A stretch of DNA of 64,000 bases from Candidatus Heimdallarchaeum endolithica (GTDB lineage: Archaea > Asgardarchaeota > Heimdallarchaeia > Heimdallarchaeales > Heimdallarchaeaceae): the NCBI GenBank assembly GCA_021513715.1, contig CP084167.1, positions 2,848,001 through 2,912,000 on the forward strand, in the 5' to 3' direction. The notes beneath the pieces were generated by a model. It searched no databases, was not told the origin of the DNA, and worked only from the letters and a program-made list of their open reading frames with translations. Both the position numbers and the translations under genes were made by a program. Each line of letters begins with the position of its first letter. Position 1 is the first letter of the stretch. This document shows positions 184-3,610 of the stretch, one piece after another.

Positions 184-1059
184 ATGGCAATTTTATTAGA
201 TGAAAATACAAAAGTAATTGTTCAAGGTATAACAGGAAAACAAGGACGTTTTCACGCTAAATCAATGTTAGACTATGGAACAAAAGTTGTAGCTGGTGTC
301 ACTCCAGGAAAAGGAGGAGAGGAAGTACATGGGGTGCCTGTGTTTGATAGCGTAAAGGAAGCTGTTGATGCAACAAATGCAGAAGCTTCAGTTATTTTTG
401 TTCCAGCACCCTTTGTTTATTCTGCAGCAATGGAAGCTATAGACGCAGGAATAAAACTTCTAGTAATAATTACAGAAGGAGTACCAGTAAAAGATTCAGC
501 CAAAATACGTAAGAAATGCAAAGAAACAAATGTTCAACTTATAGGGCCCAACTGTCCTGGATTAATTACTCCTGGGAAGAGTAAGATAGGAATTATTCCT
601 GGACAAATTTGTATGCCTGGTAATGTAGGAATTGTTAGCAGAAGCGGAACCCTAACATATGAAATCATTCAAAACCTTACTCTTAATGGGTTAGGCCAGA
701 GTACTTGTGTTGGTTTAGGAGGAGATCCAGTTCATGGTATAGATTTTACTGAAGCTCTTGAAATGTTTGAAAATGATGAGCAAACTGAACATATTATCTT
801 GGTAGGAGAAATAGGTGGTACAGGAGAACAAGAAGCTGCAGAGTTAATAAAAGAAAAAATCACTAAACCTGTTTATGCTTTTATTGCTGGAAATGGAAGC
901 TGGGTTAAACCTGGAAAACAAATGGGACACGCAGGAGCTATTGTCCAAGGTGAATCAGGGACTGCTAAAGCAAAAATGGAAATTCTTTCAAAAGCAGGAG
1001 TAGTCACGGTTCGTACACCTCAAGAAATACCCGAAAAAATTAAAGAAAAGAGTAGTTAA
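184..1059 (+). CDS. sucD: Succinyl-CoA synthetase alpha subunit
   Basis: VQGITGKQG, IGPNCPG, SRSGTLTYE, phospho-His motif MGHAGA; ATG at 184 follows GGAGG. Confidence 0.97.
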   Translation: MAILLDENTKVIVQGITGKQGRFHAKSMLDYGTKVVAGVTPGKGGEEVHGVPVFDSVKEAVDATNAEASVIFVPAPFVYSAAMEAIDAGIKLLVIITEGVPVKDSAKIRKKCKETNVQLIGPNCPGLITPGKSKIGIIPGQICMPGNVGIVSRSGTLTYEIIQNLTLNGLGQSTCVGLGGDPVHGIDFTEALEMFENDEQTEHIILVGEIGGTGEQEAAELIKEKITKPVYAFIAGNGSWVKPGKQMGHAGAIVQGESGTAKAKMEILSKAGVVTVRTPQEIPEKIKEKSS

Positions 1060-1079: not shown

Positions 1080-2240
1080 TTATGTATTGAAAGTTTTTTC
1101 GAAATTGTAGGGGGTATCATGTCCAAAACGTAGGTGTATAGAATAGGAAATTGAAATAGTAAAAGATTGTGAAATATTAAAATCTGAAGTAGGAACTATA
1201 ATTGAACCTCCAATAGTTAAATCCCCTTCTTTTTGATAGAAAGAGTACCAGTACATGTAAGCTAACTCTTTATCATTTTGTATTAGAGTAATATTGAAGT
1301 TTTTCAATACTTTATTCCATGTTCCATCGTGTGAAAAATAGATCTTATAAGCAATAAAGTAAATTTCTCCATCATCATATTGTTGAATTTGAACAAGGCT
1401 GATGTCTTTAATTCCTGTTTCTAAGTTCCTGTTACTTACAATAGTATCTAATATTGGAATAAAAATTATTAAAGAAATAATAAATACAACTGATATAATA
1501 ACCTTATTTCTAGATTTTTTATCTCTAAAAGTGTTAACAACTTTGTTTTTGATTCTTTTTGGCAATTGTTGAAAATATCTGAAAATCTTATCTTTAACAC
1601 TAACTTTTTCTTTTTTTGTATTTTCTTCTTTGCATTTTTCTTCTTTCTCTTCTTTTTTTTCTTTCTCTTCTTCTGGGCTTAATATTAAGTAAATTAAGAC
1701 AATAATTAGAAATCCTATGACTAGATATTGAATAAAAGGATAGGCGCTTAACCATAATCTCAAATAACCTATTTTTGGTATTAAAAACACTGTTTTTCCT
1801 AAAATTGCATCATAAGGAATTAATGTTGATGAAATATTGTAAGAATCAACATAATTATTACTATCTGGGTTATCTCCACTTACTCGATAATAATATTCTA
1901 TTCCTTCATTCGTCGAAACTTTGGTTATATTAATTACTCTATGAATTATAAGTAATTTCTTTGAATCAGGAATACTGGGGTTGAGATTGCTGCGATAAAC
2001 TATTACATCCCCCATGTGAATATTATCAGGTTTTGACTTAACAATAAGAAACATGTCCCCTTGATCATAGGTTGGCCACATACTTGAATGAGGTCCATTT
2101 TCGATAACAACAAGTGATGTTCCTAGTATTCCTCCTGTTAGCATTTTAAGGATGACAAACATGATTGATGCTATGATGATAAATGAGAAAACATCTTTCC
2201 ACTTAATTTTAGATAAATATTCAGAAATTGACTGAGACAT
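1080..2240 (-). CDS. Signal peptidase I (S26B/Sec11 type) with extra C-terminal TM plus beta-rich domain (SPC22/23-like)
   Basis: N-terminal TM, catalytic Ser (SSMWP), GDVIVY, catalytic His (IIHRV), GDN motif, GK..F.IP.IGY; ~200 aa C-terminal extension. Confidence 0.85.
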   Translation of the reverse strand: MSQSISEYLSKIKWKDVFSFIIIASIMFVILKMLTGGILGTSLVVIENGPHSSMWPTYDQGDMFLIVKSKPDNIHMGDVIVYRSNLNPSIPDSKKLLIIHRVINITKVSTNEGIEYYYRVSGDNPDSNNYVDSYNISSTLIPYDAILGKTVFLIPKIGYLRLWLSAYPFIQYLVIGFLIIVLIYLILSPEEEKEKKEEKEEKCKEENTKKEKVSVKDKIFRYFQQLPKRIKNKVVNTFRDKKSRNKVIISVVFIISLIIFIPILDTIVSNRNLETGIKDISLVQIQQYDDGEIYFIAYKIYFSHDGTWNKVLKNFNITLIQNDKELAYMYWYSFYQKEGDLTIGGSIIVPTSDFNISQSFTISISYSIHLRFGHDTPYNFEKTFNT

Positions 2241-2618: not shown

Positions 2619-2719
2619 ACCTGTAATTTAGTTTTTTGATAGTATTTTTTTTTATTCATCAAAAAATATTTTCTTCTGTTACACAAAAGTTTAATTATGT
2701 CTTTTTTGTCGGTTATTGT

Positions 2720-3073
2720 ATGGGTACTGATACAAAAGATTCTCTCTATTTATTATCAAGAGAATACTTGAAAAGATATGGAAAAATAATAGATGATCTT
2801 TCAGAAATAGAAGGACTAAAAAGAAGTGCAATAAAATTTCTAGTTAAGGTAAAGAATCACTTTCTAGGTGTTTGGATTCTGGATTGGAAAAGGAATGTGG
2901 GGACAGATAAAATTATACATATTGAACGTTTAATCCAAAGATCAAACCTTAGTGGTGGATTTATTATCACTAATAAGTTCTCTTCAAATGCAAGACAACT
3001 TGCAGAACAGACTGACAGTTTGATTTTAATTGAAAAATCTGAAATTTTATATCACTCAAAAGGCACATTTTAA
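2720..3073 (+). CDS. Mrr-like restriction-endonuclease-fold protein, probably catalytically inactive
   Basis: W.R.VG...I......GGFIITNKFS.NA...A....ILI matches the Mrr_cat second half; D and (Q/E)xK catalytic residues not evident; ATG at 2720 preferred. Confidence 0.6.
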   Translation: MGTDTKDSLYLLSREYLKRYGKIIDDLSEIEGLKRSAIKFLVKVKNHFLGVWILDWKRNVGTDKIIHIERLIQRSNLSGGFIITNKFSSNARQLAEQTDSLILIEKSEILYHSKGTF

Positions 3074-3211
3074 CTTTTAATATTTCTTTAATTTATTTTA
3101 ATTAGACTGTCTCTTTTGTTCACTTTTTAGATAAGAAATATAATAAGACTATCGCTACTTTTTTAAATTATAAATTCGTAATATTTTTAGAAACTCATAA
3201 AAGTGATTAAT

Positions 3212-3610
3212 ATGATGAAAAAAAGAGGTGTTTCTCCAGTAATTGCAACAGTATTGCTTATAGCTCTAGTAACAGCTGCTGCAGCTATTGTATTTTTGGT
3301 AGTTTTACCAATGGTTCAGAATCCTGGTGCACAAGCATTGATTACTACTCCAAATGGAGCTATTGATAATGGAAATGGCACTATGACTTTTAATTTCCAG
3401 ATTAAAGCGACAGGAGGAGATATTACAGTCACTGATGTAACTGTGTCTCCAACAGTAACAGTTAGTTTTACTGCTATAACAATAAGTGCAGAATCTACTC
3501 AAACAGTACAAGTTTGGGGAGCATTTACTGATAATACAGAATATACATTTACTTTTACTTTTACATCAGGAGATAGTTCTTTCACTGAAACAGTATCTGT
3601 AACAGCATAA
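3212..3610 (+). CDS. Archaeal type IV pilin (class III signal peptide)
   Basis: MMKKRG/VSPVIATVLLIALV.AAAAIVF is the PibD/FlaK cleavage motif plus hydrophobic helix, followed by a Thr-rich beta domain. Confidence 0.9.
   Translation: MMKKRGVSPVIATVLLIALVTAAAAIVFLVVLPMVQNPGAQALITTPNGAIDNGNGTMTFNFQIKATGGDITVTDVTVSPTVTVSFTAITISAESTQTVQVWGAFTDNTEYTFTFTFTSGDSSFTETVSVTA

Follow-up and report, generated by a model that had tools for sequence, protein, structure and literature searches.

The eukaryotic signal peptidase complex (SPC) has four subunits, among them SPC12 and SPC25, and its core is formed by SEC11A or SEC11C together with SPC22/23 (SPCS3; yeast Spc3; PF04573; structures 7P2P, 7P2Q, and 9RJB). 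In the human complex, the SPC22/23 sandwich embraces the SEC11 core, and the accessory subunits of this endoplasmic reticulum (ER) enzyme have been described as evolving at the advent of eukaryotes (10.1101/2020.11.11.378711). Archaeal signal peptidase I of the Sec11 type (MEROPS S26B, TIGR02228) shares the catalytic domain with its boxes B, D, and E and the two transmembrane segments (TMs), and its usual form, including that of Loki-, Thor-, and Odinarchaeia, stops after TM2. Here, we describe a gene from Candidatus Heimdallarchaeum endolithica, located in a window of 64,000 nucleotides (contig CP084167.1, positions 2,848,001 to 2,912,000 of the forward strand), whose product (P0001) is such a peptidase but continues for ~200 extra residues through a charged linker and a third TM into a beta-sandwich. 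We consider it likely that this protein works like a fused SEC11-SPC22/23 core, the sandwich being an accessory subunit built into the chain and packed against the protease.

Two other kinds of proteins share parts of this layout. TafD-type and DUF5305-fused peptidases (Haloarcula TafD, Anaerolinea E8MZY1) also add a second outer domain to signal peptidase I, and the DUF5305-peptidase fusion has already been called reminiscent of the eukaryotic complex. However, those are dedicated enzymes in fiber operons, and TafD has four TMs, whereas the enzyme described here has three TMs, lies next to sucD, and is the sole TIGR02228 match in a closed genome, so that it is probably the general, housekeeping enzyme rather than a pilus-dedicated one. 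Its sandwich does not match the DUF5305 profile (PF17231). LEA-2/TMEM106B-like type II membrane proteins (8B7D, 3BUT, 1XO8) have a TM and a seven-strand sandwich of the same fold, but LEA_2 (PF03168) matches none of 91 members of the family studied here, and the PF03168 matches in 151 Asgard genomes are to other, larger proteins.

The 386-residue open reading frame (ORF) is a real gene, and the parts read from it in the first-pass annotation (a Sec11 domain and, beyond its second TM, a charged linker leading to another TM and a beta domain of ~120 residues; coordinates in Table 1) were all borne out by the ORF list, TIGR02228, the SEC11A match, hydropathy, and structure models. Residues 13 to 183 match TIGR02228 at 56.8 bits (59.5 in the genome search) against a cut-off of 51.85, and the peptidase matches human SEC11A and SEC11C with E values of 4e-7 to 8e-7 (4e-7 for SEC11A, 7p2p_A). 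S53, H100, R101, G122, and D123 (the box B Ser, the box D His-Arg, and the box E Gly-Asp-Asn) are invariant in 88 homologues, and D132, conserved in 89%, probably corresponds to D122 in the SEC11A triad, judging by the SEC11A alignment and the published description of its triad. An amphipathic helix at residues 158 to 166 occupies the position of the SEC11 bowsprit helix. The closest named relative is a Ca. Heimdallarchaeum aukensis protein with 84% identity. The sandwich is under purifying selection, with a ratio of nonsynonymous to synonymous substitution rates versus the sister species of 0.11, compared to 0.054 for the protease and 0.18 for the linker, and two of its residues, W331 (99%) and G339 (97%), are nearly invariant across the homologues. 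An AlphaFold2 model of the full-length chain from an 88-row alignment reached a predicted local distance difference test score (pLDDT) of 87.7 and a predicted template modeling score (pTM) of 0.78, and it shows a disordered stretch at residues 192 to 209 (pLDDT <50), a helix at 215 to 239, a long helix that includes TM3, and seven strands between 276 and 384.

The linker is predicted to lie inside and the sandwich outside, on the same side as the active site, in agreement with the earlier proposal. In addition to hydropathy, the distribution of charge points to this topology: among ~85 homologues, the 15 residues ahead of TM3 typically contain 3 to 7 Lys/Arg, and the 15 residues after it contain 0 to 2. 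N-glycosylation sequons average 1.9 per sandwich (94% of the sandwiches have one) versus 0.25 per linker, and the sandwich, which here carries sequons at N316 and N355, is probably N-glycosylated, as judged from sequence. Some Heimdallarchaeaceae copies (489 residues; P0008; L006:682-2163, L008:241-1941) have a RING finger in the linker between TM2 and TM3 (zf-RING_2, E 3e-8, residues 233 to 276), which supports a cytosolic linker, and the C-terminal helix of yeast Sec11 crosses the membrane (PMC13578380), which puts the Sec11 C terminus in the cytosol.

Table 1. Features of the Sec11-sandwich gene (coordinates are positions in the window; res, residues)
Feature	Coordinates	Strand	Basis or remark
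Gene for 386-residue Sec11-type signal peptidase I with C-terminal TM/beta-sandwich module (P0001)	1080..2240	minus	ORF
TM1, res 17-35, N terminus inside	2136..2192	minus	Hydropathy 2.44; helix 14-35 in model
Sec11/S26B catalytic domain, res 36-167	1740..2135	minus	S53, H100, R101, D123
TM2, res 169-187	1680..1736	minus	Hydropathy; counterpart of the C-terminal Sec11 helix that takes the eukaryotic chain back to the cytosol
Charged linker, predicted cytosolic, res 188-246	1503..1679	minus	Disordered K/E stretch, then amphipathic helix with basic patch ahead of TM3
TM3, res 247-265, predicted in-to-out anchor of the sandwich	1446..1502	minus	Hydropathy 2.9, positive-inside pattern; position as the single TM of SPC22/23
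Predicted outward seven-strand immunoglobulin (Ig)/LEA-2-like beta-sandwich, res 269-386 (118 residues)	1083..1436	minus	pLDDT 93.7 when modeled alone; fold searches

Outside the Heimdall-Njord-Wukong branch, which current phylogenomics places nearest eukaryotes, the fusion was found in one further family only. The sandwich was surveyed by iterated profile searches across Asgard genomes with a profile that was built from the fused groups and contains no Sec11 sequence, and groups are named by the NCBI labels of exact protein matches. It is present in 77 of the 83 Heimdallarchaeia genomes: in 26 of 30 Heimdallarchaeaceae plus the present genome, in all 16 genomes of the other three families of the order, in 22 of 22 of the Hodarchaeales family, in 11 of 12 of the Gerdarchaeales family, and in one of the two genomes of a further family. 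Beyond this class, it occurs in 10 of 12 Njordarchaeia, both Wukongarchaeia, and a single genome of one more family. Weak first-round matches were checked, and every true match sits in an ORF that starts with a Sec11 domain; in every intact case, the sandwich is fused to Sec11, and it has been retained across lineages that are only ~20% identical to one another. In ~300 other Asgard genomes, the sandwich was not found. The two matches outside the branch were spurious (a short frame antisense to a 782-residue gene and a 33-position match in a 3473-residue frame), and the Sec11 frames of these other genomes, among those listed, have 140 to 283 residues and end after TM2, except for an N-terminal fusion and a second copy that has four TMs. 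The sandwich was likewise absent from all of the ~70 peptidases of other archaea and bacteria among 80 loci listed with a Njordarchaeia query, which is a sample and no proof of absence. The stand-alone sandwich copies P0022, P0023, and P0031 are contig-end fragments or part of a broken tandem copy, and longer entries labeled Bathyarchaeia or Korarchaeota were taken as mislabeled because the proteins are essentially identical to those of Gerdarchaeales and Njordarchaeia. A quick tree of the Sec11 domain, made without eukaryotic Sec11, placed each of the well-sampled fused groups in a clade of its own and left the backbone unresolved. The approximately unbiased test did not reject one origin for the fused Sec11s (p-AU 0.50); we infer a single ancient fusion.

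If the favored explanation, a built-in accessory subunit, is correct, Heimdall-group Asgard archaea would have in this protein their housekeeping signal peptidase of the ER type (Ser-His-Asp), with its accessory subunit held within one chain. TM1 would place the protease domain outside and TM2 would bring the chain back to the cytosol, the charged linker would act as a flexible tether, and TM3 would cross outward again and present the sandwich, which would pack on the catalytic domain, stabilize the protease, and keep it at the surface of the membrane, the role that SPC22/23 plays for SEC11 in eukaryotes. The eukaryotic core is alike in its Ser-His(-Asp) Sec11 domain with two TMs and in a further in-to-out TM with an outward, sequon-bearing sandwich on the active-site side, and the models point weakly to a contact between the two here as well. 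It differs in consisting of two chains instead of one and in the size of its sandwich (~145 residues versus ~118 here). The four-subunit composition also sets the eukaryotic complex apart, since the SPC12 and SPC25 profiles found nothing above cut-off in five genomes tested.

When the chain was split in two for modeling, the complex score was 0.37 (runs of 0.35, 0.37, and 0.64) versus 0.00 in all three controls, with a contact agreement of at least 69% and a partner pLDDT of at least 77. The mark for this score is reached by 58 of 80 solved pairs and 2 of 110 mismatched pairs, and at scores of 0.60 or less, by only 7 solved pairs together with both mismatches, so the models point weakly to docking of the sandwich on the catalytic domain, and the score may have been helped by likeness to the solved SPC. 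The pTM of the full-length model would be hard to reach with halves of ~190 and ~140 residues free to move, which suggests a fixed contact. Several observations weigh against a built-in accessory subunit. The support from docking is weak, and the run returned no interface. Mean-field covariation shows no excess of interdomain pairs, in an alignment that is too shallow to tell (Meff 125). Finally, the Sec11s of Loki-, Thor-, and Odinarchaeia and other archaea lack both the sandwich and an adjoining gene of this kind, and the Sec11 fold therefore does not strictly require a partner.

The first-pass annotation had gone further and regarded the protein as an Asgard precursor or fused form of the SPC core. 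In its strongest form, this means that the sandwich is the ancestor or sister of SPC22/23 and that the SEC11 + SPC22/23 core arose by fission in the linker of the fused gene. The topology, the fold class, the branch-limited distribution, and the weak docking fit this proposal, while the sequence tests for homology to SPC22/23 do not, and we regard it as a serious candidate that falls just short of an even balance. The segments FIAYKI, TWNKVL, LAYMYW, and FTISISYSI..RFG, read by eye as resembling SPC22/23, are present in the order described. For comparison, eukaryotic SPC22 genes were fetched by motif scan, four of them verified with Pfam and one with the PDB, and the family was then extended. 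An HH-align comparison of the sandwich family with the SPC22 family gave an E value of 0.7, and the profile-profile E values ranged from 0.05 to 0.7 over ~30 settings, sub-alignments, and filters, including a 192-sequence profile. The best subgroup was the Hodarchaeales subset (E 0.075), whose outer domain alone did no better than its own shuffled controls. In BLASTP against SPC22, real domains scored 18.9 bits and reversed ones 18.6, and reversing the sequences likewise made no difference to the hidden Markov model scores. A TM-anchored glocal test used as decoys 530 real segments that follow a TM in this genome; 91% of them did as well as or better than this protein, and the median of the sandwich family lay at the 64th to 74th percentile. 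Given these decoy and reversed-sequence results, the resemblance seen by eye is at the chance level of beta-strand patterns. PF04573 was not matched by any of the 91 family members, in the organism's own genome, or on this gene in five genomes. Searches of Pfam, NCBIfam, and PDB sequences with the sandwich and its profiles gave nothing meaningful, an F5/8 type C match being far under the cut-off, and ESM Atlas feature searches returned unnamed clusters under 0.8 or nothing. Thus, no test gave a significant sequence signal, though SPC22 is well conserved across eukaryotes. Since the SPC22 profile is shallow (Neff 3 to 5) and was used without a secondary-structure term, a remote homology may have escaped these tests, and the low-threshold alignments tend, with very low confidence, to the colinear register proposed in the first-pass annotation, with TM on TM, in one setting with the invariant Trp of the sandwich family on the invariant Trp of SPC22.

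The structural comparison is loosely positive, and it does not single out SPC22/23. Fold searches with the sandwich return generic Ig/LEA-2-like sandwiches, a very common fold. In a full-length Foldseek search, SPC22/23 (7p2p_B) ranked 16th with an E value of 2.6e-3 over 168 columns of a 179-residue chain, which counts in favor of homology; the TM-score was 0.33 and the root mean square deviation 9.2 Å, in a 4.9-Å model (7P2P) where the true homologue SEC11A reaches a TM-score of only 0.61, and the sandwiches of TMEM106B, Af_0446, and GH2 scored better. When the domain alone was searched with Foldseek and VIA, SPC22/23 was not among the first 50 matches, and it was missing from the Atlas structure rows as well as from the VIA list for the full-length chain, in which each entry is represented by a single chain; these absences are not taken as exclusion. 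None of the chains of 9RJB turned up in any fold search. With respect to the predictions of the earlier reading, the outer domain thus has no profile similarity to SPC22, has a loose structural similarity to it, and is not predicted to be cytoplasmic.

Where the sequence is silent, the case for descent is carried by distribution and topology. Current phylogenomics places eukaryotes within or beside Heimdallarchaeia (PMC10307638, PMC12222021), a lineage in which the fusion is found, and a cut in the linker would leave a Sec11 with two TMs and a type II subunit with one, which are the topologies of the two eukaryotic subunits, with the same fold class and the same partner; the tree, which allows one origin of the fused Sec11s, carries no eukaryotic Sec11. 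That the eukaryotic core descends by gene fission from a single-chain peptidase of the Heimdall-Njord-Wukong ancestor is accordingly put forward as a tentative proposal with nearly as much for it as against it. On the other hand, signal peptidases have gained outer domains independently elsewhere, as in TafD and the DUF5305 fusions, and the Heimdall-Njord-Wukong ancestor could have acquired, in a single fusion, a generic TM with an Ig/LEA-2-like domain as an accessory to its Sec11, with SPC22/23 drawn from the same large fold class in a separate event. This convergence is possible but somewhat doubtful in our judgment, as the same topology, side, fold class, and partner must then have arisen in the lineage nearest eukaryotes and a second time in eukaryotes themselves. 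It is unlikely that the sandwich, rather than clamping the protease, is a module on a tether for binding substrates or for coupling the peptidase to the translocon, the translocon-associated protein complex (TRAP), or oligosaccharyltransferase (OST), since, despite a long and variable linker, TRAP luminal domains among the fold matches (8b5l, 8btk, E ~3e-3), and TRAP and OST homologues encoded by Asgard archaea (PMC10307638), many unrelated sandwiches match at least as well as those of TRAP, and both the pTM and the weak pass in the complex test favor a fixed contact.

Several variants of the gene were seen among the relatives. A marine-sediment contig (L052:3-1866) has the fusion gene in two tandem copies. 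In the first, a stop follows TM2, and TM3 and the sandwich have a frame of their own (the same in a second assembly, L053); the second runs into repeated sequence. The arrangement is either a duplicate in decay, an assembly error, or a naturally split gene. Two Gerdarchaeales genomes have two fused-gene copies each (G056, on C1 and C21; G294, on C25 and C60), and a 524-residue copy (L003:1492-3066, P0011) has a 110-residue N-terminal extension that matches no known family. Among other Sec11 genes, a second copy in G083 (L239:685-1980) has four TMs with an unrelated outer domain between TM3 and TM4, a TafD-like architecture, and a frame in G063 (L232:2221-3315) has a four-TM N-terminal domain without a Pfam match ahead of Sec11, which may be a fusion or a start-site artifact. 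In a bin labeled Gammaproteobacteria (L317:1-1194), a signal peptidase is followed by a third TM and a bacterial Ig-like tail, apparently an independent fusion of similar layout.

In the window, the peptidase gene is convergent with sucD (positions 184 to 1059, plus strand), which encodes the succinyl-CoA synthetase alpha subunit; this arrangement is kept at most Heimdallarchaeaceae loci and is not found in Gerdarchaeales. On the other side lie genes for a small Mrr-like restriction-endonuclease-fold protein (2636 to 3073, plus strand; Mrr_cat, E 8e-5), similar ORFs of which occur near the peptidase in several relatives, and for an archaeal type IV pilin-like protein (3203 to 3610, plus strand; Pilin_N, E 3e-8), which bears a class III signal and, near 3541 to 3560, a short ACATTT/ACTTTT repeat. 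A substrate link between the peptidase and this pilin-like gene 1 kb away was rejected because of the class III signal and because the gene adjacent to the fusion in Heimdallarchaeaceae is sucD.

The fusion is nowhere mentioned in the literature covered, which did not extend to subscription journals and supplements, and no archaeal counterpart of an SPC accessory subunit is described there; nor does the fusion come up in the main text of a survey of Asgard proteins based on structure. The single chain of Sec11 and outer sandwich provides a concrete candidate source of the essential SPC22/23 subunit. If the descent is true, SPC22/23 would be an overlooked Asgard inheritance rather than a eukaryotic innovation, and it would be a shared character linking eukaryotes and the disputed Njordarchaeia to the Heimdall-Wukong branch. 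If the Njordarchaeia bins are chimeric, their fusion gene could derive from their Asgard part. Regardless of any homology between the sandwich and SPC22/23, the fusion is a rare genomic character common to Njord-, Heimdall-, and Wukongarchaeia, with none in the TACK Sec11s sampled, and as such, it bears on the dispute over the placement of Njordarchaeia (PMC12411855 versus PMC12222021).
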